Origin: Nanobdellota archaeon
GTDB taxonomy: Archaea > Nanobdellota > Nanobdellia > Parvarchaeales > Parvarchaeaceae
Direction of reading: 5' to 3'
Length of the DNA stretch: 64,000 nucleotides
Assembly (NCBI GenBank): GCA_021852265.1
Contig: JAJZNV010000005.1
Location: 8,402 to 72,401, forward strand
Part shown: piece after piece, positions 10,166 through 50,707 of the stretch
How the letters are laid out: every line of letters begins with the position of its first letter
How positions within the stretch are numbered: position 1 is the first letter of the stretch
Notes under the pieces: model-generated
What the model was told of the DNA's origin: nothing
The model's database searches: none
Seen by the model: the letters and a program-made list of their open reading frames with translations, nothing else
Translations under genes and position numbers: made by a program

Positions 10166-10192
10166 TTTATTCAAAACATAATTTGTTTTAGC

Positions 10193-10543: not shown

Positions 10544-10551
10544 ACATCATG

Positions 10552-10944: not shown

Positions 10945-11035
10945 ATAAAAGACAATACCTTATACGTTAAATATCTTTTTTGAAAACATTATCCACCATG
11001 TTAAAGTTTTATATAATGTCCGATTAAATCTAATT

Positions 11036-12082: not shown

Positions 12083-12146
12083 TACATGCTATTACGCCAC
12101 AAGCTTTTGTTTCGGTTCAAAAAAGAAAGTTATAAATATACACCGG

Positions 12147-12350: not shown

Positions 12351-12356
12351 TTGATT

Positions 12357-12626
12357 ATGGCTAAGGTAGTTTTGAAAATAAAGGCTTTGCCGAAGGATAT
12401 ATCTACTAATATTGACAGCTTAAAAGGTCATGTAAAAGAGTTTCTTATGAAGTATGGGACCGTCTACAGAATAGAAGTGGAACCATTGGCATTCGGCCTT
12501 AACGTAATTATAGTGACGTTCATAATGGAGGAATCTGAAGGCACTACGAGTTTAGAGGCTGCCTTCACTACTTTTAAAGATGCTGAGATGTCTATAACAG
12601 ACGTGTCTAGAATGCCAGATTTTTAG
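12357..12626 (+). CDS. Translation elongation factor aEF-1 beta
   Basis: About 89 aa. VVLKIKALPKD...L..........YG.VYRIEVEPLAFGL is the typical aEF-1beta size and pattern. Confidence 0.8.
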   Translation: MAKVVLKIKALPKDISTNIDSLKGHVKEFLMKYGTVYRIEVEPLAFGLNVIIVTFIMEESEGTTSLEAAFTTFKDAEMSITDVSRMPDF

Positions 12627-13714: not shown

Positions 13715-13733
13715 TATTTATTTGTATCTTTGT

Positions 13734-15899: not shown

Positions 15900-15991
15900 A
15901 TCAATCCTCCCCTCACTATAATACTATACTTCTATTTAGAGTGTATAGATTATAAATAGTTTTTATGTATTACTATAGTATTACTAAAAAT

Positions 15992-16738
15992 TCAATGGCC
16001 GCCCCAAACATCACGTTTTATATGCTCCTTATCATTCGGCAGACCTAAAGATGTGAGCAGATTTGTCATATCCGAATTAAATTTATTTGAACCGCATAAA
16101 TAAGCGACTCTTTCGGTAATGTCCGGTGCATATCTTCTTATTTTATCCATATCGACTCTACCTGATTCCCCTTTCCATTCAGCATCTTCAGCAGCCCTTG
16201 TTAGCGTTATTATAACCTTAGCGATGCCCCTCATATTAAACTCTATTAACTCTTGGCCTCGGATAATATCTGCCCTAGTACGTGCAGAATATAATAAAAT
16301 TATGTCTTCATGAATGTTGTTTCTTTCAATGTATTTCAACATAGAAAGGAATGGCGCTATACCGGTTGCCGCAGCTATAAACAGAGATTTTTTGTTGTAC
16401 CCTTGAGAATACTCAAAATTTTTACCATTAGGTTGGCTTATGTTGTAGATCTCCCCTATCTTTGCTTTATCAAGTATAGAAGTGAGTTTTCCCCCTACCA
16501 TCTCGATATAGAATTCCAAGGTCTCTGAACCAGGGGCTGAGCCTATCGAGTATGGCCTTTGAATGTCTATTTTTGAACCATCACCGCTGTATCCTATCTG
16601 TACGAATTGTCCTGGCTTAAAATCCATGATTTCGCCAAACTCAGATTTGAATTTAAGAGTTTTTACAGTTGGTGTTTCCTGTATAATATCAATTAATCTG
16701 TAAGGTCTTTTTATTGCATTTTGTTGTGTCGGGAGCAT
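15992..16738 (-). CDS. FAD/NAD(P)-binding oxidoreductase, ferredoxin-NADP reductase family
   Basis: 248 aa with the FAD-binding motif RPYSIGS and the NAD-binding motif LFIAAATGIAPFLSML. Confidence 0.65.
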   Translation of the reverse strand: MLPTQQNAIKRPYRLIDIIQETPTVKTLKFKSEFGEIMDFKPGQFVQIGYSGDGSKIDIQRPYSIGSAPGSETLEFYIEMVGGKLTSILDKAKIGEIYNISQPNGKNFEYSQGYNKKSLFIAAATGIAPFLSMLKYIERNNIHEDIILLYSARTRADIIRGQELIEFNMRGIAKVIITLTRAAEDAEWKGESGRVDMDKIRRYAPDITERVAYLCGSNKFNSDMTNLLTSLGLPNDKEHIKRDVWGGH

Positions 16739-18146: not shown

Positions 18147-18232
18147 GGGTCCATAGTCTAGTGGTTATGACGTCCGCTTGACGAAATGTTTCAAAATGCG
18201 GAAGCTCGAGGGTTCGAACCCCTCTGGGCCCA
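18147..18232 (+). tRNA. tRNA-Val (anticodon GAC) with about 13-nt intron at 37/38
   Basis: Acceptor GGGTCCA/TGGGCCC, anticodon stem TCCGC/GCGGA, loop TTGACG + intron + T, T arm GAGGG-TTCGAAC-CCCTC. 86 nt in total. Confidence 0.75.
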
Positions 18233-20476: not shown

Positions 20477-21211
20477 ATGAAGCTAGATCTCGATGCGATT
20501 CTTAAAAGGATAGGTATACACATCTACAAACCAGAACTCTCATTTAAAAGGTTCTATGGTCTCGATAAGGTAGGATATTATGGTGCAATAACCTACCGGG
20601 AAACAAATGAAAAATATAGCAAGTCTAAGCTATTTAGCATATCTAGATTAAGCGGTATAAGGCAGGCAACTTTCATATGCGGCGGAGGAAACCAGGTATT
20701 AAAATTATCCGCGGAACTGATAAAAAACAATTACGGTATCAAGAGTATACAGGTAGTTGACTCAAAGGCAGCTCAGCTGGAAAATTTAGTAGGGTGGTTA
20801 GATGCATATAACGACACGGAAATACGTGAACAGGATAAATCGTCTATGTATCCAGAGGCACATCATGAACTAGGTCATTTAGATAAATTTAAGTTTCGGC
20901 GCAAGCTAAATTTTGATTTGTATAATGCTAATATTGAGGATTTTGTAAAGAACTTAAGCGGTAAAAATGTGCGGTTTATCTATCTTTCGAACGTGCATGA
21001 CTATATAGGACAGAATAACTTTAGAAATTTTATAGAATCGATTCTAAATAGCGAAGCGTTCGATTATGGAAGTGTTCTACTCATAGCACAAGCACACTCT
21101 TCAGAGCATTCCCTTCTAAAAAAAGTAGAGACTAACCATGGACCGCGTCTACTGTCGTACGGATTTCCATGGAAGAAAATCGACTACTTATCAGATATAT
21201 CTCTCTTCTAG
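20477..21211 (+). CDS. Hypothetical protein
   Basis: 244-aa ORF with no family recognised. Its last 20 codons include copy 1 of a 38-bp direct repeat. Confidence 0.4.
   Translation: MKLDLDAILKRIGIHIYKPELSFKRFYGLDKVGYYGAITYRETNEKYSKSKLFSISRLSGIRQATFICGGGNQVLKLSAELIKNNYGIKSIQVVDSKAAQLENLVGWLDAYNDTEIREQDKSSMYPEAHHELGHLDKFKFRRKLNFDLYNANIEDFVKNLSGKNVRFIYLSNVHDYIGQNNFRNFIESILNSEAFDYGSVLLIAQAHSSEHSLLKKVETNHGPRLLSYGFPWKKIDYLSDISLF
21150..21187. repeat. 38-bp direct repeat, copy 1 (tactgtcgtacggatttccatggaagaaaatcgactac)
   Basis: Identical string found again at 21223-21260 by direct comparison. Confidence 0.9.
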
Positions 21212-21222
21212 CATCGGCACTG

Positions 21223-21260
21223 TACTGTCGTACGGATTTCCATGGAAGAAAATCGACTAC
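21223..21260. repeat. 38-bp direct repeat, copy 2
   Basis: Identical to 21150-21187. The copies are separated by 35 bp that contain the stop codon of the upstream ORF. Confidence 0.9.
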
Positions 21261-30733: not shown

Positions 30734-30829
30734 GGATTCGTAGCTTAACGGTGAAGCGCTGCTCTTATATGAGCGTGCTTTAACATTTAGGATAAGCAGA
30801 GATCGAGGGTTCGACTCCCTCCGAATCCA
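30734..30829 (+). tRNA. tRNA, probable Ile (anticodon UAU), with about 24-nt intron at 37/38
   Basis: Acceptor GGATTCG/CGAATCC, D stem GCTT/AAGC, anticodon stem CTGCT/AGCAG, loop CTTATA + intron (30770-30793) + A, T arm GAGGG-TTCGACT-CCCTC. Hand-folded only. Confidence 0.6.
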
Positions 30830-37058: not shown

Positions 37059-37147
37059 GGGCCCGTCGTCTAGTGGATAGGATCGATGGCTTCGAATGCC
37101 ACTGATGGAGTGACCATCAGGCCGGGGTTCAAATCCCTGCGGGCCCT
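37059..37147 (+). tRNA. tRNA, probable Arg (anticodon UCG), with about 17-nt intron; integration target of the casposon
   Basis: Acceptor GGGCCCG/CGGGCCC, anticodon stem GATGG/CCATC, loop CTTCGA + intron + A, T arm CGGGG-TTCAAAT-CCCTG. The last 4 nt lie inside the left target-site duplication copy. Confidence 0.7.
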
Positions 37148-37157
37148 ATTCTGATTG
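37144..37157. repeat. Target-site duplication, left copy (ccctattctgattg)
   Basis: The same 14-mer abuts the outer end of each TIR in direct orientation (second copy at 50694-50707). Confidence 0.85.
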
Positions 37158-37380
37158 GGGGTATAGTATATCTCTTCCTTAATTTCACTCCTGCCCCAGT
37201 ATATATACAAAAGTATATACTTTCAATAATTCATGCCCAAATCATTTAAAATCAATATCTAATTTGTATAGGTTTCATTTAGGAGTATTCTAAGAGTAAA
37301 GTAGGGGTCATCTCGGATTCATCTGCGAGAAAACTCACTAATTAGTGATTCGTGAAAAAGGGGAAAAGTTCGAGAACTCG
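37158..37380. repeat. Left terminal inverted repeat (223 bp)
   Basis: Checked 10-mer by 10-mer: exact reverse complement of 50471-50693. Confidence 0.95.
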
Positions 37381-37553
37381 GAACAGTTTAAATAACTAAT
37401 TAGTGATGTTTGAGTAGGGTAACTAGGGATAGAGTCGAGTTACTATCAGTTAGCTAATATAATAAAAGTTTTTTAAGTTTGAAGGCCTGATTAAGAGTTG
37501 TAAAATTTACTTAAAAAGTAATCTTTATATAGATAAAATTTAACTATGTTTCA

Positions 37554-38696
37554 ATGGACCTTATATTAGAAGGGTTATTTATATTTTTTGTGATTGTTAC
37601 GACTCCGTTTACTCTTTTTCAGTTAGTACTTATTGTACGTAATAGGAAAGTTCTAAATAAAAAAATACCCCCTCCTCAATCTGGCAGGCGTATACTAGCT
37701 GTAATTGCGACTCTTGGTAAAGCAGATGATGTAGTGTTTCAAATCGTAAAACAACTCAAATCATATAATTTTAAGAATTTATACATATACATATTAGTTG
37801 AGTACGATAATAAGACTGATTATGGCGTAAAATCTATTGTAGTTCCAAAGGACTATAAAACAGATCATCATTCTAAATCCAAACATAGAGCTTTACATTA
37901 TTTTTCAGAATGGCTTAAAAAAGAAGGATATGGCAAGGAAACCTATGTAGTGCATTTAGACGATGATTCTGTAGTTTCTAAAAAATATTTAGAGTATGTG
38001 ATGGGAATGACGGCCGAGGCCGGACAGGGGGCCATAAGACTTAGGACGTATGGACACCATCTTTTTTCTACTTTAGCCGATTTTGGTAGAGTTGTAGATT
38101 GCGATACTTACTGCGCATTTTTTAATTCGAGAAGTACTCCTTTTGGAGTGCATGGGGAAGGTTTGGTAATAAGAGCCGATGTAGAAGAAGAGATTGGTTG
38201 GGATTATCAACCTACAGTAGCCGAAGATTTTATAATGGGCCAAAATATTTACTCCAAAGGGTATAAGTTTGATTTTATTCCAGGAGGTATCTACATAGCA
38301 CCACCTACAAACACAAGAGACTTTTATAATCAAAGAAGACGTTGGCACCACCACTTTTTTGAGTCGATTCACCTAGGTTACAAATTACATAAAAGTGCTA
38401 CTGCTTGGTTTGCATATCAGTATTCAATGGGTTGGGCCATGGCATTGGGGCTAGGTATCTGGATTTATGTTCTTATAGCCAGACCTAGTATCTATCCTAT
38501 ATTATTCTATATAACCACTTTTAATTTAATAGTGTCTTTTGGATTGTACCAATACGCTGCATATTACATAAAAAAATTAAAATACCATCTACTTATGTTA
38601 TTACTTCAAATCCCAGTCACCGTATATTACTCATTAACATTTTTTTACTACCTCCTTAAAAAACCTAAGAGCGATATATACATAAAAAAAGTGTAA
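37554..38696 (+). CDS. Family 2 glycosyltransferase, membrane-embedded processive type (D,D,D,QxxRW)
   Basis: 380 aa. N-terminal TM helix, VVHLDDDSVV (DxD), QRRRWHHH (Q-x-x-R-W) and C-terminal TM helices. Casposon cargo. Confidence 0.7.
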   Translation: MDLILEGLFIFFVIVTTPFTLFQLVLIVRNRKVLNKKIPPPQSGRRILAVIATLGKADDVVFQIVKQLKSYNFKNLYIYILVEYDNKTDYGVKSIVVPKDYKTDHHSKSKHRALHYFSEWLKKEGYGKETYVVHLDDDSVVSKKYLEYVMGMTAEAGQGAIRLRTYGHHLFSTLADFGRVVDCDTYCAFFNSRSTPFGVHGEGLVIRADVEEEIGWDYQPTVAEDFIMGQNIYSKGYKFDFIPGGIYIAPPTNTRDFYNQRRRWHHHFFESIHLGYKLHKSATAWFAYQYSMGWAMALGLGIWIYVLIARPSIYPILFYITTFNLIVSFGLYQYAAYYIKKLKYHLLMLLLQIPVTVYYSLTFFYYLLKKPKSDIYIKKV

Positions 38697-38727
38697 AAGT
38701 TATTAATTAAAGCAGTTTATAAATTTA

Positions 38728-39411
38728 ATGTCAACAACTATATTTGGGAAGATATCTTTTCTTAATGGTCAAATCGCTAAATTATCAATGGGTTCTAAGA
38801 TATTGAATTATGGCGGAGGTAGCATAGACATCAAAAACGGTATTGTGACAATAATTTTCAATGATACGAAGGAAAAAACGTTATTTGAGTTATACCACAT
38901 ATCTTATGATTTAATTGATAATCTCCTTTTAGGCAATGAACTTAACCTAGACAGAGCCATTATATTCTTCCCGGAAAGTGTAGAAAGAGACGGAATACAG
39001 GAACAGTTTGATTGGGATGTTTTCGAAATAAAGGCCGAACAAGTTGATATAAGAGAATTTGGAATTTTCCTTGCGGGAGATCCTCTATTTAGACAAGCTG
39101 TAAGAAACTTCCATATTGGTTTACTTGATACACGTGATGCACCGGCTCATTTTTATAGGGCCATTGAAGTTTTAAGGATAAGAGTTGCAACTCCAAATCC
39201 TAATAATAGAAGCGCCGAATGGGAGGAATTTAAGTCTAAAATATGTTTAAACAAAGAAGAGAAAGCTGACTTAATTTGTATGAAGGAAATAGCAAAAAAT
39301 TATCGACATGGTGTTAGGCTGGAAAATATAGATCATTTAAAATGGGTAGAGTTTACTAAAAAATTAATAATAAAAACTTATAATTACCTAAAAAAACAGC
39401 AGGCTTTTTGA
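38728..39411 (+). CDS. Hypothetical protein (casposon)
   Basis: 227-aa ORF with no family recognised. Confidence 0.4.
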   Translation: MSTTIFGKISFLNGQIAKLSMGSKILNYGGGSIDIKNGIVTIIFNDTKEKTLFELYHISYDLIDNLLLGNELNLDRAIIFFPESVERDGIQEQFDWDVFEIKAEQVDIREFGIFLAGDPLFRQAVRNFHIGLLDTRDAPAHFYRAIEVLRIRVATPNPNNRSAEWEEFKSKICLNKEEKADLICMKEIAKNYRHGVRLENIDHLKWVEFTKKLIIKTYNYLKKQQAF

Positions 39412-39419
39412 ATTTCTTT

Positions 39420-39674
39420 TCACTTCTCCCCCCACTGTTTTAATATCCTATCTGCTTCAAGTTCTTTTTCATAAATCCAATTATCATTTATCTCTGATAT
39501 TAACCCGATTAATTTTGGCGATCTTTTGTAAGCCGTTTTAGTTGCAGCGTAAACTTCTAATATCTTAGTAAAAACTGCATCGGCGCTTCTGCTTTTACTA
39601 TCAAGCTTTATTTGCATTATTTTTCTCCAGTTCTCGTAAGACACTGTAATGTCTTTATAGCCATTTCTTCTCAT
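39420..39674 (-). CDS. Hypothetical small protein (casposon; possibly RHH-like)
   Basis: 84 aa. Last gene of the minus-strand polB operon. The beta-strand/helix pattern ITVSYENWRKIMQIKLD is only suggestive. Confidence 0.35.
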   Translation of the reverse strand: MRRNGYKDITVSYENWRKIMQIKLDSKSRSADAVFTKILEVYAATKTAYKRSPKLIGLISEINDNWIYEKELEADRILKQWGEK

Positions 39675-39703
39675 ATTTTATGTTTTAAAGCCTAGTATTT
39701 TAA

Positions 39704-40138
39704 TCAGATTTCACCTTTTTTTATCAAGTCAGTCAATGCCCTTCCCTGCGTGTCAAGGAAATCCCTTCTCTGTTTCGCATCTGGATCTATCTTAGCCGAA
39801 GTTTTGTCTAAAACGTCCGTGTTTCTGAAGCGCAGTACGACATCGTCATCAAGCTTCTTCATAGAGGTATAATGCAGGTTTCTAAGTTTATCTGCGCAGT
39901 AGATACAGAACTTGCTGAATGGCACCATACTCTTATAGTTTTTTGATTTTATTGCGTCAGTCTTTGATAGTAGGTCTATTGCTTCATAGTAATCGGAGCT
40001 AGTTACTACAAAGTCCAGTGGGCGTCTTTTTTCCAGGTATACAATCACAAGCGCTTTGTACCATATCCTGTCTTTCGATTCAATCATATACTCATTCAAT
40101 GAACCGAATAATACGTTTTCAGGATCTTTATCTCTCAT
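39704..40138 (-). CDS. Hypothetical protein (casposon)
   Basis: 144 aa. Overlaps the polB 3' end by 11 nt, which suggests translational coupling. Confidence 0.4.
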   Translation of the reverse strand: MRDKDPENVLFGSLNEYMIESKDRIWYKALVIVYLEKRRPLDFVVTSSDYYEAIDLLSKTDAIKSKNYKSMVPFSKFCIYCADKLRNLHYTSMKKLDDDVVLRFRNTDVLDKTSAKIDPDAKQRRDFLDTQGRALTDLIKKGEI

Positions 40139-42836
40139 ATACCGCCTTGCTTTTTTGGCATCCCATCTTTGGATTTAAATCCATGTATGCCTGTATCCGT
40201 TTTATTATCTTACCCATCCTTCTGAATGGTTCTTGCTGTTTCCTTATCTGATAATACCTTCTTTTAGATATCCCTAGTCTGATTCTGTCGGTTTCTGTCA
40301 GCTCTCTCGCTTTTTCGGCCAGGTCCTCATATACTGTATAACTTCCATCTAAAACACCTACTACCTCGGACTCTTCCAGTTCATTGCTTTCTTTTCCTAT
40401 GTATTTTGTACTAGATGAGCAGAATATTACATGCTTTCTGCTTAGTTCTCCTATGTCTCCTTTAAACTTGCTCTCTGGGTGCTTCCAGTAATCCCATACC
40501 ACCTCTTCTATGGGCGTCCAGTATAATTGTGTATCCTGCTCGTATAATTTCCCACTCTTATAATCTATGAAAGGTTCATAGACTAAACTATTAAATGACT
40601 CTTTACTGCTGTTGACAAATGAATGAACTGGTATTATTGGCTCGTTAGTTTCAGGATCACGCCTACAGGATCTGCCCACCAAAACGAAATTGAACGGCCT
40701 TATAATCCCGAGCTTGGAAAATCTCTTTATTATTGACGGCTTTGTTACATTCAGCTCTGAAATCGCAAACTTACCTGAGTATTTTCGCACTATTTCATTA
40801 GGCCCTGTATTATTCAGTTCAATTTTCAGGATATCCTCCCAAATCTCTTTATTTTGAATGCCTTCTAGGTTTCCTAGCCCATGGGACGATGATGTGCGTA
40901 TAATTGGATTACCGTTTATGGTATCAAATAGAGCGTATCTCTTTGCTGATATACCATAGAAATTGACGTTTTCCAATGGTCTTCCATCCTCATCTTTCTC
41001 TACTTTAAACATGTCTGTTTCATGTTCATATGGGTTCAAAGGCTTGAAAAAGCTTTGTATTAGGTCTTTATGCTGCGGAGAGATCATTACGCTGTCTGTG
41101 TCGCAGTAAGCAAGGTACCCGCCGTTTCTTTTCAGCAGCGCTTCCGCTATACCCAAAACCAATCTAGAGGCTGATGTAAGCATAGTAGCTATGAGTGGAT
41201 TAAATTTAGAACCTGGTTTTTCAAGTCTATTCACCTTGCATATAAATTTCTTTAGGCCGTATACATCAACATTCTTATATTTTTCCAGTGGTTCAATGTC
41301 CAACTCTACGAAGATCCCGTAAGACATGGCATTAACTATGGTTTTTATCGCTTTCTGTTTAATAGTCAGCTGCCTTATCTCATTTTTATCCTTGGATATG
41401 CCTGCTTTGCGCTTTATCTCTAGTCTTTCATCTATTAGCTTCCGGACTATATTCTCTTCGGGACTTATAGTTATATCATCCATTATGTTTATCTCTCTAA
41501 GGCTATTTTGAACACCCTCACGCAGAAACTTTATAGCCGTTTTTATCTTTGGGACTTTGCCCGATAAGAATTTATCAGCTACCAGATCGGCAAGACTGTA
41601 CCATAAAGCCGTGCCGTCTGAAGAACTGACTACATTAAGCCCTATCGTATATGCATTCCTCCCATCATAATTGGATCTTATAGGCAATATATCGGAATCT
41701 GGGACTATCTCGCATATCACTGGAAGGCGTTTCCAAGTGCCTTTATCCATGAAATCTTCAATTTTTACAATTTCTAAGAAGGACTGAGTCTCGGCTGTCG
41801 CATCTTCATACCTTATCTTTTCAGCTTTTAGGAATGAGTCCATGTCTGTCAGAGTATAAACAGAAGGGTACATCGAAGTAAAGTCAAGATATGTTACTTT
41901 TGATGGCAATTTTCGGATTTTTACTTCTGTCCTACCCCCATAATATGTAGTCATAATATAACCCAATAGCTCTTTTGGAAAGTCTTTATTCTGCTCCATA
42001 AAGGGTTTTATACCGTAATTTTTAAGGTATGCTTTGGCCAGAGATGCCGGTGAGAGCAGCCTTTCGGGCGGTATATCAAGCATAAAGGTTGAGTATCTTT
42101 CCGTTAGCTTCTTATATAATTCGTAGGTAACATCCACATCGTTAATGTTATAAGCTATGTAATCTGGTGTTATTCTGCCGTGTCCATTTGGATGCGTCTT
42201 CCTGGAAATGCAGTCAAAATCCTCAGCGGCTGACTCAAGCGAGTAGCTTTTGCTTGTCAATGCAAATGCAAATGTCCTTAGATCCAGAAATCTTCCTCTG
42301 TAATATTCATATTCCTCATCTCTTTTGTCTCGGGGGGCAGTTATAGAATAAAATGACCTCTTTGAATCAAGGCTCTTTATATCTATCCTAGGCATTGTGG
42401 GATTTTTGGACAGGATAAAGGAGAACCCCCCTTTCAATGATTTTCTAGCTTCTCCGTATCTTATTGCGAGTCTGGATATGTCAAACGGCAAGTTAAACCC
42501 GACACAGAGGGCCTTTGCATTGTAAACGTAAGGCAGGAATATCCTATCAACAAAATCCGATCTGTTCATTAAAGTGAGATCATTTTCTAATGCGTATTGC
42601 TCTATTGTTTTTACATCATCTGTTTTTAAATCATCCGCGTAGAATAAGTATACAGCAAGGAGTTTGTCAGAAATGAATATCTTGCATGTTCCAAACAGCA
42701 GTTTCTGTTCTTTGTCTGTAGTAGTTTCCGTATCAAAAACAAGGATTATGTCGGTACTATAACAAAATCGCTTATCTGGTTTATCTACCAATTCAATAGG
42801 GGCATACGCCCTTAGCACTACAGTTTCATTAACCAT
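40128..42836 (-). CDS. polB: Family B DNA polymerase (casposon-encoded)
   Basis: 902 aa. ExoI LVFDTET, ExoII GFNLPFD, ExoIII YNINDVDVTYELY, Pol A YLDFTSMYPS, Pol B KTIVNAMSYGIF, Pol C YCDTDSV, KxY SAKRYALF. Confidence 0.9.
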   Translation of the reverse strand: MVNETVVLRAYAPIELVDKPDKRFCYSTDIILVFDTETTTDKEQKLLFGTCKIFISDKLLAVYLFYADDLKTDDVKTIEQYALENDLTLMNRSDFVDRIFLPYVYNAKALCVGFNLPFDISRLAIRYGEARKSLKGGFSFILSKNPTMPRIDIKSLDSKRSFYSITAPRDKRDEEYEYYRGRFLDLRTFAFALTSKSYSLESAAEDFDCISRKTHPNGHGRITPDYIAYNINDVDVTYELYKKLTERYSTFMLDIPPERLLSPASLAKAYLKNYGIKPFMEQNKDFPKELLGYIMTTYYGGRTEVKIRKLPSKVTYLDFTSMYPSVYTLTDMDSFLKAEKIRYEDATAETQSFLEIVKIEDFMDKGTWKRLPVICEIVPDSDILPIRSNYDGRNAYTIGLNVVSSSDGTALWYSLADLVADKFLSGKVPKIKTAIKFLREGVQNSLREINIMDDITISPEENIVRKLIDERLEIKRKAGISKDKNEIRQLTIKQKAIKTIVNAMSYGIFVELDIEPLEKYKNVDVYGLKKFICKVNRLEKPGSKFNPLIATMLTSASRLVLGIAEALLKRNGGYLAYCDTDSVMISPQHKDLIQSFFKPLNPYEHETDMFKVEKDEDGRPLENVNFYGISAKRYALFDTINGNPIIRTSSSHGLGNLEGIQNKEIWEDILKIELNNTGPNEIVRKYSGKFAISELNVTKPSIIKRFSKLGIIRPFNFVLVGRSCRRDPETNEPIIPVHSFVNSSKESFNSLVYEPFIDYKSGKLYEQDTQLYWTPIEEVVWDYWKHPESKFKGDIGELSRKHVIFCSSSTKYIGKESNELEESEVVGVLDGSYTVYEDLAEKARELTETDRIRLGISKRRYYQIRKQQEPFRRMGKIIKRIQAYMDLNPKMGCQKSKAVYER

Positions 42837-43302
42837 GCTTGTCTGCCCCCAGTAAAGTTGATATCGTGTAACATAAAGAGTTTGACAAGAATAATGCAGA
42901 AGCTTCGTTTAGTTTTACGTACCGAAGCATTAATATGTCGGATATTCCCTGTAGTAAAAAGGCATTTCTAACGTTTTCTGTTTGATCGGCAAGCTCCCAT
43001 CTTTTGTCCCATACCATCTGCCTTTTTGATAGTTCCTGGTGGCATGATTTACACACGGTTAAGACTATATTCGGGTTATGCTTCCATCCGGACGGATGGT
43101 GCAGTTCTGAATCATTATCTTTTATCAGTTTGTCGCATACCTTACAGATTGGGCTACGGAGAAATTCCTCATTATTGGATATTATAAAATTAATAAGTTT
43201 AATTAAATCAGACAGCTCTTTAGATAGGTTTTTAATATAATCCTCTTCAGCTTTCTTTAATTCAGAATTCAATTTTACCAGTAAACTTTCAGTCGGTGGC
43301 AT
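42829..43302 (-). CDS. HNH-type nuclease-like protein (casposon)
   Basis: 157 aa. CKVCDKLI...ELHHPSGWKHNPNIVLTVCKSCHQELS is an HNH-like CxxC...HH...N...CxxCH arrangement. Overlaps the polB start by 8 nt. Confidence 0.6.
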   Translation of the reverse strand: MPPTESLLVKLNSELKKAEEDYIKNLSKELSDLIKLINFIISNNEEFLRSPICKVCDKLIKDNDSELHHPSGWKHNPNIVLTVCKSCHQELSKRQMVWDKRWELADQTENVRNAFLLQGISDILMLRYVKLNEASALFLSNSLCYTISTLLGADKHG

Positions 43303-43966
43303 AGATGGAATAAAATTCAGGCTCCTCCCTCCTCTCCACTATTTCGAGAATCTTTTTCAGATCAGTTTCAAATGGATAAAACTTTAGATTTGAATCGAAA
43401 ACTCCACGGTTCTTAAATGCTTCTAACCTTTCTGGTTCGTTTTTGAAAATGAACCAGCGAACCGCATCAAGATATTGTCCAAGCAAAGATGCCTCTCTAG
43501 AATTATTTAGTTCAATTATAAGATCATTAGAATTTGAATATATGTGCATTATTCTTGGTATCTCGTCACTTGGATTAACAATCCATTTATTGCCCACTTT
43601 ACGGAAAGCGCCTGTGGCTCTTACAACATCAGAAAACTTAATGCCGTTGCTTTTAGCTATTTGAACAGGATCTCTATCTGGAAAGCGCCTAGATTCACTT
43701 ACGACTTTAAGGGCCATTTCTCTTTGTATTTTTTGCTTTGATGTCAACTTATTCCAAGGTCGCTGGTATAACGGCTTTCTTTTAGGATACCTTAAAGGAT
43801 TAGAGCCGTGTCCTCTTAGTTCCCTTAAAGTCGCATTCGGATATTTTGCATGTGCTTTTATAATGCGCTGAACGTATGGGCTGTTTGGATTCTTTTGCGC
43901 CGCTAACCACTCTTCAAACGTCCGAAACCTCCCAGAGAGCCCCATGATTAATATCTGGTCTCCCAT
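43289..43966 (-). CDS. Hypothetical protein (casposon, first gene of polB operon)
   Basis: 225 aa. Overlaps the downstream HNH gene by 14 nt. No family recognised. Confidence 0.4.
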   Translation of the reverse strand: MGDQILIMGLSGRFRTFEEWLAAQKNPNSPYVQRIIKAHAKYPNATLRELRGHGSNPLRYPKRKPLYQRPWNKLTSKQKIQREMALKVVSESRRFPDRDPVQIAKSNGIKFSDVVRATGAFRKVGNKWIVNPSDEIPRIMHIYSNSNDLIIELNNSREASLLGQYLDAVRWFIFKNEPERLEAFKNRGVFDSNLKFYPFETDLKKILEIVERREEPEFYSIYATD

Positions 43967-43975
43967 GAATAAATA

Positions 43976-44004
43976 CGTTATAGCGTACTTAGTTCGTTAT
44001 AGCG
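43976..44004. promoter_or_regulatory. Two copies of CGTTATAGCG (43976-43985, 43995-44004) in the 66-bp divergent promoter region; candidate operator
   Basis: Direct 10-mers 19 bp apart, between the divergent operons. A TATA-like tatttata follows at about 44011-44018. Confidence 0.3.
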
Positions 44005-44032
44005 AAAAGTATTTATAGGTGGGATAACTTAA

Positions 44033-45097
44033 GTGTATATGGTAAATAATAATAAGACACTTAAAAAGATAGAAAATAAATATGAGATTTTGGGGTACTT
44101 ATTTTCCAAGTCTAATCCAGTAACTTCGGCCGATTTGATTAAAGAAATACGCGGTATGAAGAGAACTGCATTTTTTAGTAATTTAAGAGATTTGGTAGAT
44201 AAAGGATATGTCTCTAAAACATATATAAATGGGGGTCCGGTCTATACACTGACACCTAAAGGAATAGATTACTACAAAAAAGATGTTTGGAGGGTCATAT
44301 CAGACCTTATGAGTTTCCAAGAGTATGACTATGGGGGGGATAATGATTCAGGCTTGCATACAATGTTTCAAGGTGTTTATTTTAATATTTTTCAATCTAG
44401 TGGAAAATCAGCACTTTTAGATTTAAAGAAAAGTAGTGATGAGATAAAAGATTCAATAATAAACCGTATATCTAATCAGATAAAAATGGCTTTAAACGCA
44501 AAAACTCTGCCTAAAGTGAATCCTGGAGCTAAAGTGATATTCGCTTTAGATATAGACTATGAACAAATGTACCAAAGGATAAATACACTAAGAATATTTA
44601 TAGATGATCTAAATGAGGATGTTTCTTATATCTTTAAAGATACAAGGCTTGGTTTCTTTCATGAGGAGGATAAAAGGCGATTTAATCTTGAGATGTTATT
44701 TAAGATCTTATCCGAATTGGAAAATTTTCTTGGTAAGAGCATCGAAAAGAAGATAAATAAGCTTCTTGATTACATATCTGATAATGAAGAGGAGTTCTTG
44801 GAATTTATAAACGGCGCTTTAGATACGGAGCTGTTAAACTGTGTAATAGAAGATGTCCGAAAAAATAAGCATCCCTTGGATGATCCGGAGATAAAAAATA
44901 AGCTTGTTGAAGTAGAGCTTACTCCTGGTAAATTTGGTGTTCGCATCTTAACTGGAACTTATCTAGATGTCGCGCTTTATCTTTTACATAAAAATAAAGA
45001 ATTAGTAGCTAAAATAGAAAAGTTTACAAAAGAAAATCGTGATAAAGAAGATGATATTGTGAAAAATATCTTAAAAAACGGGGTAAGAAAAGTATGA
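44033..45097 (+). CDS. Winged-helix DNA-binding protein (casposon)
   Basis: 354 aa. N-terminal wHTH ILGYLFSKSNPVTSADLIKEIRGMKRTAFFSNLRDLVDKGYVSKTYINGGPVYTLTPKG. ATG at 44039 is an alternative start. ATGA overlap with cas1. Confidence 0.55.
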   Translation: MYMVNNNKTLKKIENKYEILGYLFSKSNPVTSADLIKEIRGMKRTAFFSNLRDLVDKGYVSKTYINGGPVYTLTPKGIDYYKKDVWRVISDLMSFQEYDYGGDNDSGLHTMFQGVYFNIFQSSGKSALLDLKKSSDEIKDSIINRISNQIKMALNAKTLPKVNPGAKVIFALDIDYEQMYQRINTLRIFIDDLNEDVSYIFKDTRLGFFHEEDKRRFNLEMLFKILSELENFLGKSIEKKINKLLDYISDNEEEFLEFINGALDTELLNCVIEDVRKNKHPLDDPEIKNKLVEVELTPGKFGVRILTGTYLDVALYLLHKNKELVAKIEKFTKENRDKEDDIVKNILKNGVRKV

Positions 45098-46272
45098 AAC
45101 CGCTATTAATCTCTGGTTTTGGGAGCTTCTTAAGCGTTGACAGGCGCAAACTAATAGTTTACAATACTTTTACTAAAGAAAAGTTTGAATTTTACCCCCA
45201 TCAGATAGAATATGATACAATAATAATAGACGGCCACTCTGGCGCTGTATCCTTTGATGCAATGAGATGGATAGCCAAGCATGATATAGCTTTAACCCTG
45301 CTGAATTGGAATGGGAATGTTCTTAGCACTCTGCAGCCTAAAGAGCCAGTTTCTGGAAAGCTTAAAATTGCACAGTACAAATCTTATCTTAATAAAGAAA
45401 GGCGTATAAACCTAGCTTCAGAGATAATAAAAGCCAAAATAAACAAATCGTATGAAATACTGGAAAAACTCTCCGTATATTACAAAGATCTGAAAATAAA
45501 TGATGTAAAAGCAAGCTTCGATAAAGAAGCCAGTCAAACTAAATTAGAGAGTATTAACTATATAATGATGTACGAAGGAAGGGTAGCCGATTTATACTGG
45601 AAAAACATGGCTAAAATCTTTAATTATTTAGCTCCGGAATTCAATTTCAAGTCTAGAAAAGGGAAATCGTATTCCTGGAACATGAATGCATCCGATGAAA
45701 TAAATGCCATGCTAAACTACGGATATGCCATTTTGGAAACACTGGTTAGAAAATATGTAAATGCCATCGGATTGGATCAAGATATCGGATTCTTGCACGA
45801 ACTAGCTAATTCGAGGGCTAGCCTAATTTACGACTTGCAGGAATTGTACAGATGGGTAATAGATCTTAGTGTTATCCAGGTTTTAGAGGATAAGAAGCTT
45901 AAGAAGAGCGACTTCATAGTCACTGAGAACTATAATATAAGACTTAGGGAAAGTGCTGCAAAGATGCTAATAAATAAGATAAAAGTTAACTTCAATAGCA
46001 CGTCTGTTTACAAGGGCAAAAATAGGGCCTTGGAATTCACCTTACTGGACAACATAAGAAAGCTGGCCGATCATGTATCCGATAGATCAAATGTTCTTGA
46101 GTTTTACATTCCGGAGGTAAAGATTGACAGAAACGATGACATAGCGGTAAGAGATAAAATATTGAGCATTACGCCTGCTGAAAGGAAAAAGCTTAAGATA
46201 AACAAAAGCACATTATGGTACAGGCAGAAAGCTATAAAGAATAGAAAAAGGATTAAACTATACAAACAATGA
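45094..46272 (+). CDS. cas1: Cas1-family integrase (casposase) with C-terminal HTH
   Basis: 392 aa. Cas1 motifs MMYEGRVADLYW (Glu), NAMLNYGYAILE, GFLHE (His) and LIYDLQELYRW (Asp). Basic C-terminal HTH-like tail KINKSTLWYRQKAIKNRKR. Confidence 0.85.
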   Translation: MKPLLISGFGSFLSVDRRKLIVYNTFTKEKFEFYPHQIEYDTIIIDGHSGAVSFDAMRWIAKHDIALTLLNWNGNVLSTLQPKEPVSGKLKIAQYKSYLNKERRINLASEIIKAKINKSYEILEKLSVYYKDLKINDVKASFDKEASQTKLESINYIMMYEGRVADLYWKNMAKIFNYLAPEFNFKSRKGKSYSWNMNASDEINAMLNYGYAILETLVRKYVNAIGLDQDIGFLHELANSRASLIYDLQELYRWVIDLSVIQVLEDKKLKKSDFIVTENYNIRLRESAAKMLINKIKVNFNSTSVYKGKNRALEFTLLDNIRKLADHVSDRSNVLEFYIPEVKIDRNDDIAVRDKILSITPAERKKLKINKSTLWYRQKAIKNRKRIKLYKQ

Positions 46273-46287
46273 TAATTTAAACTATTT

Positions 46288-46704
46288 CTAAAATAATCTT
46301 GGAGGCCTACGTTCTTTTAAACCTGTAATTGGGTTAATCCAATACTCTCCTTTTTCTTTTTTATGTGCCCTTTTTTGTCGTATTTCTTTTACTCTATCAT
46401 CGTTAGTTTTTTGGGCATGACAAGTGGCACATAGTGCTTGTATATTTGATATGTCAGTTTCCCCTCCCTTTGAATGGGGTTTAATATGGTCGTATTGGGT
46501 AGCAGAGGGTATTAATTGTTTACCACATATCGCACATTTGCCATGCTGCCTTTCCCATACCTTGTTTTTTTCCGATTTACTTATTTGTCTTTTATGGTCC
46601 TTTTTATTAGATTTTGGACTTTGCCAGATAGAATTTAAGCCTAGGGAATTGTTCTTTTTTATTTTATTACCAAAAATATCATAATTACTGTCTAAAATAC
46701 CCAT
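46288..46704 (-). CDS. HNH endonuclease (casposon)
   Basis: 138 aa. HGKCAICGKQL...YDHIKPHSKGGETDISNIQALCATCHAQK is a canonical HNH motif. Confidence 0.8.
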   Translation of the reverse strand: MGILDSNYDIFGNKIKKNNSLGLNSIWQSPKSNKKDHKRQISKSEKNKVWERQHGKCAICGKQLIPSATQYDHIKPHSKGGETDISNIQALCATCHAQKTNDDRVKEIRQKRAHKKEKGEYWINPITGLKERRPPRLF

Positions 46705-46778
46705 TATCGATGTAGTATTTCTTTATTTAAATAAGTTTATGCCATTTCGGTTTCTCTAAAACTATGTTGTAACTATTT

Positions 46779-47414
46779 TTACTTATACAATAAAACATGT
46801 TTAGGAAAGTGGAGTAGAAGATAAAATGTATTAGAAATTGAATTCCTATAATCATCTTTTATATATGAAGTTATGCAGAATGGTTGCAAAGAAGTATCAA
46901 TTTTCATTCGTGGGTAAGTTTTGGTTTCTTTTTTGTTACAGTGTAGCTGAGCTATAAAGATTTTCTTCTTAATTTTCCCCCTAAGATTTTTGTATCTATA
47001 CAAACCATCACTTAAGGCTATACCATATTCACAACCATGACTAAATATAAAAACACTCTCCATGTTTTTATTTATAATAGCTCTTTCGAAATCTCGCCCT
47101 TTTTCAACAAAAATTATTTTGTAATTCAATTTTAGGTGTTTTAACCTATATAGAAGTAAGAAAATAGAATTACTGTAAATATGTATATTCTCTAAAGAAC
47201 TGCGCATCCCAGATATTTTACGTTTTCCAATTATAATTCCTACAAATTTTGTAGTTTTGTTGTATTTCTTTTTTTTGTTAGTATTTTTAGATACTCTTAA
47301 TAATATTGGCATGAAAATAATAGAGATTGCTATAAAAATAAAACTGATTACTAGCGGTATTACAAATGCTATTACAAGTATTATTGTTATTAATACAATT
47401 AATTGAAATGCCAT
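46779..47414 (-). CDS. Hypothetical membrane-anchored protein (casposon)
   Basis: 211 aa with an N-terminal hydrophobic helix pair followed by a Lys-rich linker. No family recognised. Confidence 0.35.
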   Translation of the reverse strand: MAFQLIVLITIILVIAFVIPLVISFIFIAISIIFMPILLRVSKNTNKKKKYNKTTKFVGIIIGKRKISGMRSSLENIHIYSNSIFLLLYRLKHLKLNYKIIFVEKGRDFERAIINKNMESVFIFSHGCEYGIALSDGLYRYKNLRGKIKKKIFIAQLHCNKKETKTYPRMKIDTSLQPFCITSYIKDDYRNSISNTFYLLLHFPKHVLLYK

Positions 47415-47595
47415 TTATATAATGATACAAAAACCAAATAAATATTTATAAAAGATTTTTAAGTCCGTAAGATTAGCGCCAAATGCTGATAAATAATAAA
47501 ATTTTATTATTCCCACCCTATAAAAATGGGCTAACTTGTGTTCCCCCTAATCAAAAAATAACAAATTATAATTTATTTATGGCAATTAAAAAGAT

Positions 47596-48986
47596 TTAAG
47601 AAACGCTGCCAAAGCTCACGGAAGGCATAACCCCCTCTGGAGCCAAATTTGCTAGAGCAATATAAAATATGATCATTTTTCCTGAATTAAGTTGAAAAAA
47701 TACACCTGTTTTAGCTGGAGTCGACATTTTTACACCACCAGTAATATAATTAACAAAATTTATTGAGGAGTATACATTTCTATTTAAGAAATACATTGAG
47801 AGTGGATACGTCTGATTCGCTACGGTACTTGGTATACTATAACCATAATAATCATTTGAAAGATTATATGTTTGAACACCATAATTACCATTACCGCCTG
47901 CGCCATTCAACCAATAAGTTGGCGCTGTATTTGGTCCACCAAATCCATCTCTTGCATATGAAGCATTAGAAAAAGATTGGAATAAAGTTATGTATAGATA
48001 ATCCGAAGGAGAGAAATAACCATAACTTCCGCCACTACTTGAGGATAAATGTAAACCATCATCTGCAGAACTTACGGGAGGCAACGGATTATAAGCACTA
48101 CTCCAACCATTTAATGAGGCGGAATTTTCAAAATTATTATAATAATAAAATAAATTGAACCCATCATCGTATTCTGCATAAGTGGAAGATAATTGAGGGG
48201 CTTCTCCATCGTTTACTGTATTGAAAAGATTAGTTGATGTAGGAGCGAAGCCCATGTAGATTGTCTGCTTTGAGCCTGCGGGATTGATGAGGTCAACTTG
48301 ACCCACCAGATTGCATGGGCTGATGTATAGTTTTCAAGCCAGGAATCTAGTATCTGGCCTGTTGAAGAGAAGAATTCGACGTTCTGGCCAAAAGGAGACG
48401 AAGAGATCTTTACCCAGCCTGGACTGGAGCTAGTGACGTTAATCATCTGCTGAAAAGGGGAAGGAGTGCCTTGACTTTGTGTGTTTGTTATATTTAAGGG
48501 TTCATATGAAGTAGCTGAAGAAGGGGGAGAAGCTGCTGTTCCTGAGACAGTTCCTGTTGAAGTGTATGGTCCCGGAAATATCTGTCCTGGCTCCAGGTAG
48601 GATATGACAGCAGAAACTGAATACCTTGCTCCTGGGCTGCATAATGATGATGAGGGTACCGTTACAGTCTGTATGCTATTGGGCTGGATTAGGATGTTTG
48701 GACTGTAGGTTGTCTTGCCTGATGAGGAGGTCAGGTTGATTTGGGTTATGTTTATAGGGTAACCTGTTGAGTCTCCCATTGATATTGTGAAGCTTGTTCC
48801 TCCTAGGCAGACTGCATTTATTGTTCCTAAATTGGAGAAGCCTGTTATTGTTGTTGACAGTGATGAAGAAGGTGAAAAGATACCTAGACTATATAAGACT
48901 GCTGCGACGATGACAATGACTAGTATGGCCCAGCCGTACGTCATCATATACTCCAATGCCGATTGGGATTTTCGTGGGAGACTCAT
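47596..48986 (-). pseudogene. Type IV pilin-like (class III signal peptide) surface protein with DUF2341-like domain, interrupted by a frameshift
   Basis: ORFs 48213-48986 and 47596-48306 overlap by 94 nt in different frames. Joined, they read ...AIWWVKLTSSIP / AGSKQTIYMGFAP..., a continuous DUF2341-like motif. The N-terminal 170 aa are paralogous to 49220-50404. The total length of 1391 nt is not divisible by 3. Confidence 0.65.
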
Positions 48987-49219
48987 ATAAGAGAAATAAG
49001 GGGAGTAAATAAATAGTTTTCATCGGGGCTACAGTAAACCACTTGATTAGGGCAGATTTTGCTCGAATCCAGTATTTATTACCTCGAAGGAGATTTAAAT
49101 TATGTTGTGTTCTATTAAAGTTATAGATTAAGAGAGTCATCGCCTAATAAATTCTGTTCTGCTTCAGGCGCTTAGACTTTATGTGCTTGTTTCTCTGCTA
49201 TTTGTGGTCAAGATATATA

Positions 49220-50404
49220 TTAGGAAAGCCCAGTATCCTGGTAATTACTTGTAAACAGAACATCTGAAACAATTCCATTTTTATTATTTCCGCTGTAATC
49301 CACAGCTGAACCATTCAAGGGCCAAAATACATCTATATTCATCCCACTAAGCGGTTTGCCTGTTAATCCGCTCGTGTACAATTGTTTTATTTGTGCAGGC
49401 GAAAGAGAACTATTATAGTATTGAAAGTTACTAACAAAACCATCTATTGTAGATGCTATACTTGGAGAGGATGAACTAAATATATTTGTTGGGTGTCCAT
49501 TTGGATAACCTAAATAAAAACATACGCTGCCAGGCGGCCAGCTTTCTGCCCCAGTATTAGATGAAACTAAGTTTCCATTTAAATATAAAGAATCATTATC
49601 AGTGGCGTTGTTATAAGACAGAACTGTATAGTACCATTCTCCTTGGTGTACGCTTGGACTTACTAGGTCAGGAAGATTCCATACCGATCCCCAGATAACT
49701 CCTGAGTTTAGGCCTAGGGGCGACATAGAGCCTGTGCAAAGTAATTGAATGAATGGCTGCACGGAATTCACATTAGATATTGAATTCATATAAACCCACA
49801 TCGAAAATGTTTTTGGTGAATTCGTTTCCATAGCTAAATTACTTATTTCTATTGTGCTTATCGGCGAACTACCCCCAGCGGTTGAATTTTGACCAAAGAA
49901 TTCAGCTACATATTTCGGTAAAATTAAAGAAGAAGACGTTCCAGAAACCGTTCCACTCGAGATATATGGTCCCGGGAATGTCTGACTTGGTTCAGTGTAG
50001 TTTACTGTCACAGCAAGAGAGTAGCGTGAGCCTGCTGCCGGACAAATGTTCGGAACTGAGAATATGTAACTCGAAGTAGGCTGGATTATTGGATTTGGGT
50101 CCACGGTTGAATTTGGCTTGAATGTGGAGATCTGACCAGTGGATGATTTTGCTGTGACACTAGTAATATTTATTGGGTAACCTGTGGAGTCTCCTAAGCT
50201 TATTCTTAATATTCCGTTGGCTGTGCACTCTCCCGTAACACTGCCCAGGTTGGAGAAACCGGTTACTGTTGAAGACAATGAGGATGCTGGAGAAAATATT
50301 CCCAAACTGTATAAAACCCCTGCTACTATCACAATGACTAGTATGGCCCAGCCATAAGTCATCATATACTCCAGTGCTGATTGGGATCTTCGTGGTAGAC
50401 TCAT
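49220..50404 (-). CDS. Type IV pilin-like (class III signal peptide) surface protein with C-terminal LamG/ConA-like lectin domain
   Basis: 394 aa. N-terminus MSLPRRSQSALEYMMTYGWAILVIVIVAGVL (prepilin-type signal plus hydrophobic helix). C-terminal FSMWVYMN...GEWYYTVLSYNNATDNDSLYLNGNLV is typical of Laminin-G-3-like domains. Confidence 0.7.
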   Translation of the reverse strand: MSLPRRSQSALEYMMTYGWAILVIVIVAGVLYSLGIFSPASSLSSTVTGFSNLGSVTGECTANGILRISLGDSTGYPINITSVTAKSSTGQISTFKPNSTVDPNPIIQPTSSYIFSVPNICPAAGSRYSLAVTVNYTEPSQTFPGPYISSGTVSGTSSSLILPKYVAEFFGQNSTAGGSSPISTIEISNLAMETNSPKTFSMWVYMNSISNVNSVQPFIQLLCTGSMSPLGLNSGVIWGSVWNLPDLVSPSVHQGEWYYTVLSYNNATDNDSLYLNGNLVSSNTGAESWPPGSVCFYLGYPNGHPTNIFSSSSPSIASTIDGFVSNFQYYNSSLSPAQIKQLYTSGLTGKPLSGMNIDVFWPLNGSAVDYSGNNKNGIVSDVLFTSNYQDTGLS

Positions 50405-50470
50405 ATGATAGAGAAGGCAAGAGGAAATAAATAGTTTTCATTGGACTGCGGAAAGTCAAATTTTAAACCT

Positions 50471-50693
50471 CGAGTTCTCGAACTTTTCCCCTTTTTCACG
50501 AATCACTAATTAGTGAGTTTTCTCGCAGATGAATCCGAGATGACCCCTACTTTACTCTTAGAATACTCCTAAATGAAACCTATACAAATTAGATATTGAT
50601 TTTAAATGATTTGGGCATGAATTATTGAAAGTATATACTTTTGTATATATACTGGGGCAGGAGTGAAATTAAGGAAGAGATATACTATACCCC
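50471..50693. repeat. Right terminal inverted repeat (223 bp)
   Basis: Exact reverse complement of 37158-37380. Confidence 0.95.
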
Positions 50694-50707
50694 CCCTATT
50701 CTGATTG
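50694..50707. repeat. Target-site duplication, right copy (ccctattctgattg)
   Basis: Identical to 37144-37157 and directly abuts the right TIR. Confidence 0.85.

Follow-up and report, generated by a model that had tools for sequence, protein, structure and literature searches.

A casposon is a transposon that inserts by means of a Cas1 relative and encodes its own DNA polymerase. Such elements have been proposed as the ancestors of the CRISPR adaptation machinery, but only a few have been described, and it is mainly in Methanosarcina mazei that their natural mobility has been documented. The described elements with which we compare the present one are AciBoo-C1 of Aciduliprofundum boonei (at tRNA-Pro), the MetMaz casposons of M. 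mazei (at tRNA-Leu) and NitNCS1-C1 of Candidatus Nitrosotalea okcheonensis (at tRNA-Pro), all of family 2, together with NitAR1-C1 of Nitrosopumilus koreensis, of family 1. Here we analyzed a 64,000-nt stretch of a Nanobdellota archaeon contig (JAJZNV010000005.1, positions 8,402 to 72,401), which we call the window and by which all coordinates below are numbered. Its segment at 37158-50693 is very probably an intact family-2 casposon, recently inserted beside the tRNA-Ser(CGA) gene of a Candidatus Parvarchaeota (ARMAN-4-like, DPANN) chromosome; the host is a tiny archaeon from an acid mine.

Family-2 casposons are 6-16 kb long and have terminal inverted repeats (TIRs) of 25-602 nt (PMC4046053). 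They insert at the 3ʹ end of tRNA genes, where the target-site duplication (TSD) of about 14 bp overlaps the last 4-7 nt of the tRNA (PMC4046053, PMC6977970). They encode two distinct helix-turn-helix (HTH) proteins, one of them with a helical (HEAT-like) C-terminal part, and their family B DNA polymerases (PolBs) have, according to Krupovic et al., a C-terminal HTH resembling that of their casposases. The casposase of A. boonei needs the sequence TCAAATC 8 bp upstream of a TSD of 14-15 bp, CC at positions +1/+2, and only the 3ʹ-terminal TCCCC of the element itself (PMC6614799). In M. mazei, where the TSD is 14 bp long and takes in the final 4 bp of tRNA-Leu, the casposase acts on the target as a tetramer and has an essential HTH (PMC6977970); natural polymorphism between filled and empty sites and in vivo mobility are both known for the casposons of this species.

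The boundaries of the window element were determined with a repeat finder, which bore out to the base the preliminary description of a 13,536-bp segment with perfect 223-bp inverted repeats and a 14-bp direct duplication. The inverted arms (37157-37380 and 50471-50694) are 224 nt long and 100% complementary, each consisting of a 223-nt TIR plus one G/C held in common with the duplication. The element proper therefore runs from 37158 to 50693, with the left TIR at 37158-37380 (terminus 5ʹ-GGGGTATAGTATATCTC) and the right TIR at 50471-50693 (3ʹ end ...CTATACCCC). Exactly two copies of the 24-nt terminus were counted in the window, compared to zero expected from shuffles. The direct repeat CCCTATTCTGATTG lies outside the TIRs at 37144-37157 and 50694-50707. 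Within the left TIR there is a palindrome, CACTAATTAGTG, at 37336, whose shorter core, ACTAATTAGT, occurs a second time just inside the TIR at 37395.

The integration target is a tRNA-Ser(CGA) gene on the plus strand at 37059-37147, detected by ARAGORN and by Rfam (tRNA, 46.7 bits), in agreement with the insertion at a tRNA 3ʹ end that had been proposed. The first 4 nt of the duplication (CCCT) are the last 4 nt of this gene, which is undamaged because the duplication restores them. Reading along the plus strand, we found TCAAATC (37129-37135), which codes for the TΨC loop and corresponds to the 'leader' motif that the A. boonei casposase requires (PMC6614799), followed by the 8 bp CCTGCGGG, the 14-bp duplication CCCTATTCTGATTG with its CC start, and the terminus GGGGTATAG. 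Thus, all the end and target determinants shown for the A. boonei enzyme are present in the sequence, namely TCAAATC plus 8 bp, CC at +1/+2 and CCCC-3ʹ at both termini. The TIRs, the 14-bp TSD at a tRNA 3ʹ end and its 4-nt overlap with the tRNA are those of a family-2 casposon.

We compared contigs (loci in other assemblies are numbered L001 onwards) that encode a metallophosphoesterase identical to the one in the flank of the window element, and 23 of these were read. The flank proteins (a Hel308-type helicase, the metallophosphoesterase and a membrane protein of 512 aa) have identical counterparts among the NCBI proteins of metagenome-assembled genomes (MAGs) of Candidatus Parvarchaeota, which agrees with the small-genome archaeal lineage suggested earlier; the genes within 10 kb on either side of the element are housekeeping genes. 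When the element and one copy of the duplication were removed from the window, the remaining sequence matched exactly in all seven loci L017-L023, which carry a single copy of the TSD. NCBI supplied five of the source assemblies, ENA one and Logan one; in all of these loci, the gene of the 512-aa protein comes directly after the tRNA. The empty site that the preliminary description had predicted, ...CTGCGGGCCCTATTCTGATTGAAGAGGG..., is hence present verbatim in sister genomes. When similar places were grouped, the empty type made up 17 of the 23 contigs. The element is polymorphic, filled or empty, within one population. Since the exact empty site is found in at least seven near-identical contigs of the same population, the insertion is recent and not an artefact of assembly. 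The earlier reading of an intact and recently active copy, made from the identical TIRs and the intact TSD, was thereby upheld.

Nevertheless, the inverted repeats, or the insertion as a whole, might have been created during assembly, for example by the chimeric joining of a mobile-element contig to a chromosome. The assemblies of L025, L026, L028 and L029 do break inside the TIRs, and L025 contains an odd internal join. However, the junction between the tRNA and the TIR was reproduced in L024 and L025, independent contigs assembled from different sources. Further, L026 is 100% identical to the window except for one inverted segment and spans 37240-50611, so that it holds 141 bp of either TIR, inverted relative to each other; L027 (99.7% identical) extends from the outermost TIR base to 48969 and includes the entire left TIR; and L028 (100% identical) stops at the inner edge of the right TIR. 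In silico excision also restores the exact empty site with a single copy of the duplication, which a chimera would not do. Considering the copies in L024-L028 together with the exact empty sites, we therefore exclude an assembly artefact, to which we would assign next to no probability.

The join in L025 (10776-11240) has the flank, the duplication and the first 85 nt of the TIR on one side and window positions 50298-50686 on the other, and the two sides overlap by 9 bp. Either this is a mini-element of about 480 bp left by internal deletion, or the assembly is in error here, where a contig of 127 kb ends. Because L027 starts exactly at the outermost TIR base, a free linear form of the element was considered and rejected: the left and right flanks share one G, so the assembly graph must branch there, and the start of L027 is no sign of a free form.

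Besides the empty sites, two further observations are signs of activity in the population. In L024 (10776-11343), from a different sample, the same tRNA-Ser site carries a 224-nt TIR with 15 mismatches in 224 positions and an unrelated interior, the palindrome CACTAATTAGTG being kept. Inward from the terminus, L037 and L038 show 99.9% identity, but they have different flanks; the adjacent 14-mers resemble tRNA-end duplications viewed from the distal side, and the flanking genes are again Parvarchaeota or ARMAN-4-like. A metagenome scan for the 24-nt terminus gave a single locus, L031, where a lone 31-nt casposon terminus (63-93) with one mismatch to the TIR end of the window has ordinary metabolic genes as its neighbors and perhaps represents a remnant of the solo-TIR kind described in M. 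mazei. As the only locus found was such a solo terminus beside ordinary genes, the scan was uninformative on other insertion sites.

The gene at 45094-46272 (plus strand) encodes the casposase, a Cas1 homologue of 392 aa with a C-terminal HTH. The preliminary description had reported a Cas1 homologue with all catalytic-motif regions and had put forward a Cas1 profile search as a check; the protein matched Pfam PF01867 with an E-value of 1.3e-58, and its residues E161, H235 and E250 align with the published M. mazei active site E162/H232/E247 (PMC6977970). When compared to the M. mazei casposase (PDB 6OPM), the match covered residues 1-386, including the HTH, with an E-value of 2.1e-75 and 37.8% identity over 378 columns, whereas the best match to a CRISPR Cas1 had an E-value of 3.4e-30. 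The tail of the protein, KKLKINKSTLWYRQK, is kept in its homologues.

We found no CRISPR array and no second Cas1 in the 64-kb window, which upholds that part of the earlier statement that CRISPR repeats, cas2 and effector genes are missing from it; for cas2 the statement holds less firmly, as cas2 was not profiled in every small open reading frame (ORF). The arrangement of a CRISPR adaptation module, with cas1 beside cas2 and an array, was not observed, the neighbors of cas1 in the element being genes for PolB, HNH and putative HTH proteins. The marks of the casposon superfamily are a Cas1-family integrase unlinked to an array or other cas genes, a PolB inside the element, and TIRs flanked by a TSD; these were recovered here, for cas2 within the scope just given, and every component from which a casposon had been proposed (TIR, TSD, Cas1, PolB and HNH) was recovered.

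As integrase-type elements classically target tRNA 3ʹ ends, and surface-protein cargo such as that described below is also found in some proviruses, the locus could be read as a plasmid or virus integrated into the tRNA gene by a tyrosine integrase, with the 14-bp repeat as the att core and Cas1 as a passenger or CRISPR remnant. However, scans of the 14 predicted genes of the element against Pfam, PHROG and NCBIfam revealed no integrase, capsid or packaging genes. Moreover, perfect 223-nt TIRs together with a 14-bp duplication that begins 8 bp past TCAAATC bear the signature of a casposase and not of att recombination, there is no CRISPR array, and the Cas1 is far closer to casposases than to any CRISPR Cas1. 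We consider integration by a tyrosine integrase extremely unlikely.

The polymerase gene (40128-42836, minus strand) encodes a PolB of 902 aa that belongs to the PolB_CDTDS type and carries an HTH at its C-terminus (Pfam PF03175/PF00136). The complete exonuclease and polymerase motifs that had been claimed for it were all located: ExoI FDTET (34), ExoII NLPFD (115) and ExoIII YNINDVD (229), followed by motif A DFTSMYP (318), motif B KTIVNAMSYG (498) and motif C YCDTDS (577). CDTDS is present in 95 of 120 PolB homologues. The C-terminal tails of Cas1 and PolB share an HTH (hhalign probability 98.2%, E 5e-14); BLASTP of the two tails gave no match, so that a profile comparison was needed to detect the likeness.

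The top Pfam match of PolB, PF03175 (DNA_pol_B_2), is of the 'organellar and viral', protein-primed type, the nearest named relatives of Cas1 and PolB come in part from MAGs of Nitrosopumilus, Nitrosotalea and Nitrososphaera, and the small conserved genes upstream of PolB recall the layout of family 1. On the strength of the Pfam match and the thaumarchaeal relatives, family 1 was our first reading. The element would then be a family-1 casposon with a protein-primed PolB, or belong to a hybrid family in which family-1 replication and family-2 integration modules are combined. This was rejected on the HTH, CDTDS and PDB evidence. The CDTDS motif C marks a separate group to which the A. boonei family-2 PolB also belongs; this PolB_CDTDS group of Kazlauskas et al. 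is related to the main and protein-primed clusters alike (PMC7544198), and its intermediate position explains the mixed Pfam matches. All matches among PDB sequences were to polymerases of the Deep Vent or 9N type, and none of them was to a phi29-type enzyme. The casposase has 392 aa and a C-terminal HTH, whereas that of N. koreensis has 347 aa and no HTH, and the window PolB bears the same HTH as the window casposase. The thaumarchaeal relatives are accounted for by the family-2 casposon already known at tRNA-Pro in Nitrosotalea. We therefore assign the element to family 2 rather than family 1 because of the casposase HTH, the CDTDS motif, the shared HTH and the HNH gene, with which the tRNA 3ʹ-end TSD and the target and end determinants agree; a family-1 or hybrid element seems very unlikely.

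Some observations weigh against an intact family-2 casposon. The assignment was made by the published defining features and not by a tree with the casposases of families 1, 3 and 4. Pfam ranks PF03175 above PF00136 for PolB, and the matches that back both 'HTH proteins' (354 and 225 aa) are weak. Near the right end, a pilin-like DUF2341 gene is split near 48213-48306 into ORFs of 257 and 236 aa, and the same frameshift split is seen in the copies L027 and L028; one gene of the element is thus not intact.

Compared to AciBoo-C1, the window element is alike in the C-terminal HTH of its casposase, the CDTDS PolB, the HNH nuclease, the candidate HTH proteins and the insertion at a tRNA 3ʹ end. Both have TCAAATC 8 bp before a duplication of 14-15 bp that starts with CC, and both have 3ʹ ends in CCCC, a likeness drawn from descriptions of AciBoo-C1 and not from direct comparison of the sequences. 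In contrast, the host of the window element belongs to DPANN and not to the euryarchaeotes, the target is tRNA-Ser, the terminus reads ACCCC instead of the TCCCC of A. boonei, the TIR is long (223 nt), and glycosyltransferase and pilin-like genes lie beside the ends. AciBoo-C1 is also the smaller of the two, at about 9 kb.

The MetMaz casposons resemble the window element in their casposase, which matches from end to end and shares the catalytic triad and the HTH, and in a 14-bp TSD that opens with the final 4 bp of the tRNA. In M. mazei, too, a site may be filled in one strain and empty in another, and a species has several sites. They differ from the window element in the TSD consensus (CGCA in M. 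mazei, CCCT here), in their TIRs of 31-59 bp and in their cargo. NitNCS1-C1 is likewise a family-2 element at a tRNA outside Euryarchaeota, but its PolB has been reported as fragmented, whereas that of the window is intact. Two Nitrosotalea loci, L001 and L002, which may represent that same element, have a Cas1 about 51% identical to that of the window, a PolB 45% identical (L002 only) and the same target geometry. Family 1, represented by NitAR1-C1, shares Cas1, PolB, TIRs and a TSD with the window element, but has a protein-primed PolB, a TSD of 13 bp, TTCTA ends and, as targets, aEF-2 or other protein genes.

The preliminary description had raised the possibility of an undescribed variant on account of size and gene content. 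This was not sustained: 13.5 kb and a TIR of 223 nt are within the family-2 ranges (PMC4046053), and a glycosyltransferase has been noted in one bacterial casposon (PMC4779613). The element is a typical family-2 casposon of the A. boonei/M. mazei type, with its size, TIR length, TSD, target and core genes all within published descriptions. What is new is the Parvarchaeota (DPANN) host, the surface-protein and glycosyltransferase genes beside the ends, and the natural polymorphism of filled and empty sites in this host, for which the M. mazei precedent exists. Our literature search (DPANN, Parvarchaeota, ARMAN, Micrarchaeota) found no casposon reported in a DPANN genome, although literature outside the search may hold one.

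We also examined related elements in other archaea. The window element has a core of seven genes in divergent arrangement, those of the 84-aa protein, the 144-aa protein, PolB, the 157-aa protein and the 225-aa protein on the minus strand, and those of the 354-aa protein and Cas1 on the plus strand. This core is syntenic in the closest relatives, L032 (Cas1 80% identical) and L033 (Cas1 67%), and partly syntenic in L030 (Nitrosopumilus), L002 (Nitrosotalea) and L003 (Methanocellaceae). The genes outside the core differ among the relatives and include restriction-modification, Schlafen-like ATPase and HepT/MNT genes, among others. L030 is a complete relative of 13.4 kb with a perfect 14-bp TSD.

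In all eight related loci where a tRNA gene adjoins the terminus (L001, L002, L004, L005, L008, L030, L033 and L036), the order was TC[A/G]AATC, 8 bp, 14 bp, and then GGGG[A/T/G].ATA. The hosts, counted as four archaeal lineages, were Nitrosotalea, Thermoplasmata, Nanoarchaeota, Micrarchaeota, Nitrosopumilus and Parvarchaeota MAGs, and the target tRNAs, including that of the window, represent six isotypes (Ser, Pro, Val, Gln, Glu and Arg). The target rule derived experimentally for family 2 (TΨC motif + 8 + 14) is thus unchanged across several archaeal lineages, and its constancy explains how one type of enzyme can use many tRNA genes and hosts. In L008 (117-3400), from a Micrarchaeota MAG, tRNA-Pro, duplication and terminus are followed 3.2 kb on by the opposite terminus, and after it by a reverse-complemented copy of the duplication and a second terminus, in a tandem or inverted arrangement of casposon ends.

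The target geometry of the window and these eight loci matches the experimental family-2 rule, from which we infer that the mechanism is likely the known family-2 one. By analogy, a casposase tetramer would bind both ends of the element, whose 3ʹ strands end in ...TATACCCC-OH, and would recognize the TΨC-loop sequence TCAAATC of the tRNA gene; this sequence, common to most tRNA genes, would serve as the anchor. The 3ʹ-OH groups would then attack 8 bp downstream of TCAAATC on one strand and 14 bp further (22 bp) on the other, and gap repair would duplicate the 14 bp, starting with the last 4 nt of the tRNA, and leave the tRNA undamaged. The element's own PolB presumably copies the element, and the HNH nuclease and the putative winged-helix proteins probably help in end processing, excision or recognition. 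The catalytic steps of this scheme are taken by homology from the A. boonei and M. mazei enzymes, and the anatomy, insertion polymorphism and target geometry from the loci themselves.

The locus leaves the current picture of how casposons work unchanged. It provides a clean natural case, in which an intact element and its exact empty site occur in one population, with a second variant at the same site and sister elements at other tRNAs. It would also be a good source of a casposase/target pair for biochemistry.

Of the remaining core genes, two lie on the minus strand downstream of PolB: 39420-39674, for an 84-aa protein (67% and 44% identity in L032 and L033, at the same position), and 39704-40138, for a 144-aa protein (67% and 52% identity in the same loci). 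The 157-aa protein (42829-43302, minus strand), always located just upstream of PolB, is a divergent HNH-like zinc-finger protein (PHROG HNH, E 0.005) with a CxxC..HH..CxxCH motif conserved in six homologues; L002, L003, L030, L032 and L033 have the motif. The earlier description had counted two HNH nucleases. One of them, the HNH endonuclease at 46288-46704 (minus strand), is solid (PF01844, E 4.7e-14; homologues in L005, 71%, and L033, 56%), whereas the other could be recovered only as this divergent zinc finger. L029 (9350-10210) is identical to the window up to 46589 and then diverges; either its HNH gene region has been rearranged or a 181-aa ORF without a family match has taken its place.

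The 354-aa protein (44033-45097, plus strand), whose gene overlaps the start of Cas1, has a putative winged helix at its N-terminus and a C-terminal part that may be long and helical, and is a candidate for the 'HTH-h' protein of family 2. The winged-helix HTH protein of the earlier description could be followed up only so far as weak but consistent winged-helix matches (MarR, HTH_27, Rio2_N), besides a weak match to S10_plectin. L032 has a homologue with 45% identity. The helical C-terminus comes from a single-sequence AlphaFold2 (AF2) model whose predicted local distance difference test score (pLDDT) of 33 makes it unusable, and there was no HEAT match. The 225-aa core protein (43289-43966, minus strand) has a probable winged-helix domain at residues ~76-130 and homologues in L002, L003, L030, L032 and L033. 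Its AF2 model (pLDDT 66 overall, ~80-90 in the domain) has an H-H-H-b-b, winged-helix-like topology with weak matches to Fur and Zalpha folds; a homologue search returned only two relatives, a PDB profile search nothing, and Pfam noise.

The genes outside the core lie towards the two ends. The first gene inside the left end (37554-38696, plus strand) encodes a family-2 glycosyltransferase with C-terminal membrane segments (PF13632, E 7.6e-24), followed by the gene of a 227-aa protein (38728-39411, plus strand), which had no Pfam, NCBIfam or PHROG match in our scans and for which a precomputed match to PF26504 (DUF8168_C) is recorded for an identical protein. On the other side, a 211-aa protein with an N-terminal membrane segment and no significant family (46779-47414) precedes the frameshifted pilin-like DUF2341 gene (47596-48986), which has a class III signal-peptide-like N-terminus and weak DUF2341 and UpsA pilin matches. 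The last gene before the right end (49220-50404) encodes a pilin-like LamG (concanavalin-type lectin) surface protein (PF13385, E 8e-10); all three genes are on the minus strand. The label pilin-like was given on the motif RKSQSALEY with a hydrophobic helix and a sub-threshold UpsA match, and Pfam did not recognize the pilin-like N-termini.

Genes of this kind were also found beside the ends of other elements. The glycosyltransferase region (37514-38816) is 83% identical at the nucleotide level to the first gene inside the termini of L036, L037 and L038, and an intact 442-aa DUF2341 homologue is the end-proximal gene of the L033 casposon, next to its terminus. The LamG gene and its promoter (49159-50441) are 91.6% identical at the nucleotide level to a chromosomal locus of another Parvarchaeota MAG (L035, 9962-11249). 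The casposon copy includes about 13 nt of the neighboring tRNA-Asn gene; the homology starts exactly 22 nt after TCAAATC in a tRNA 3ʹ fragment and ends in tRNA-Asn right after TCGAATC. Surface-related genes thus recur beside the ends in this lineage, and at least one of them has been exchanged with the host chromosome. In the Parvarchaeota elements L036-L038 (~7330-16500), over 9 kb of copper and redox cargo (cupredoxin, DDE transposase, AhpC, YHS and Cu-ATPase) lie beyond the terminus GGGGTATAG... and the glycosyltransferase, and the contigs end before any cas1 or polB.

The inverted segment by which L026 (11529-11746) differs from the window is 218 bp long (48768-48985), has the 11-bp inverted repeat TGAGTCTCCCA at its two edges, and takes in the start codon and the signal-peptide region of the pilin-like gene; L027 ends within it. 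The inversion could be an on/off switch or a one-off rearrangement; no invertase is encoded by the element.

It is conceivable, though we think it rather unlikely, that the end-proximal genes of Parvarchaeota casposons, with the membrane glycosyltransferase on one side and the pilin-like LamG/DUF2341 genes on the other, form a conserved accessory module and not random cargo. Such a module would alter the surface of the episymbiotic DPANN cells, which might help cells to make contact and the element thereby to spread between them, or might help the cells to attach to the host archaeon. Exchange with pilin genes of the chromosome would renew the module, and the 218-bp inversion might switch it. 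If true, this would be the first proposed function that ties a casposon to intercellular transfer or to symbiont biology.

Elsewhere in the window, a perfect 38-nt direct repeat (21150-21187 and 21223-21260) with a 35-nt spacer and the palindromic core TTCCATGGAA overlaps the 3ʹ end of the ORF at 20477-21211; there are only two copies, with no cas genes nearby. In addition, Rfam detected tRNA genes at 18147-18232 and 30734-30829 that were missed by ARAGORN; as both are longer than usual, they are probably intron-containing archaeal tRNAs.

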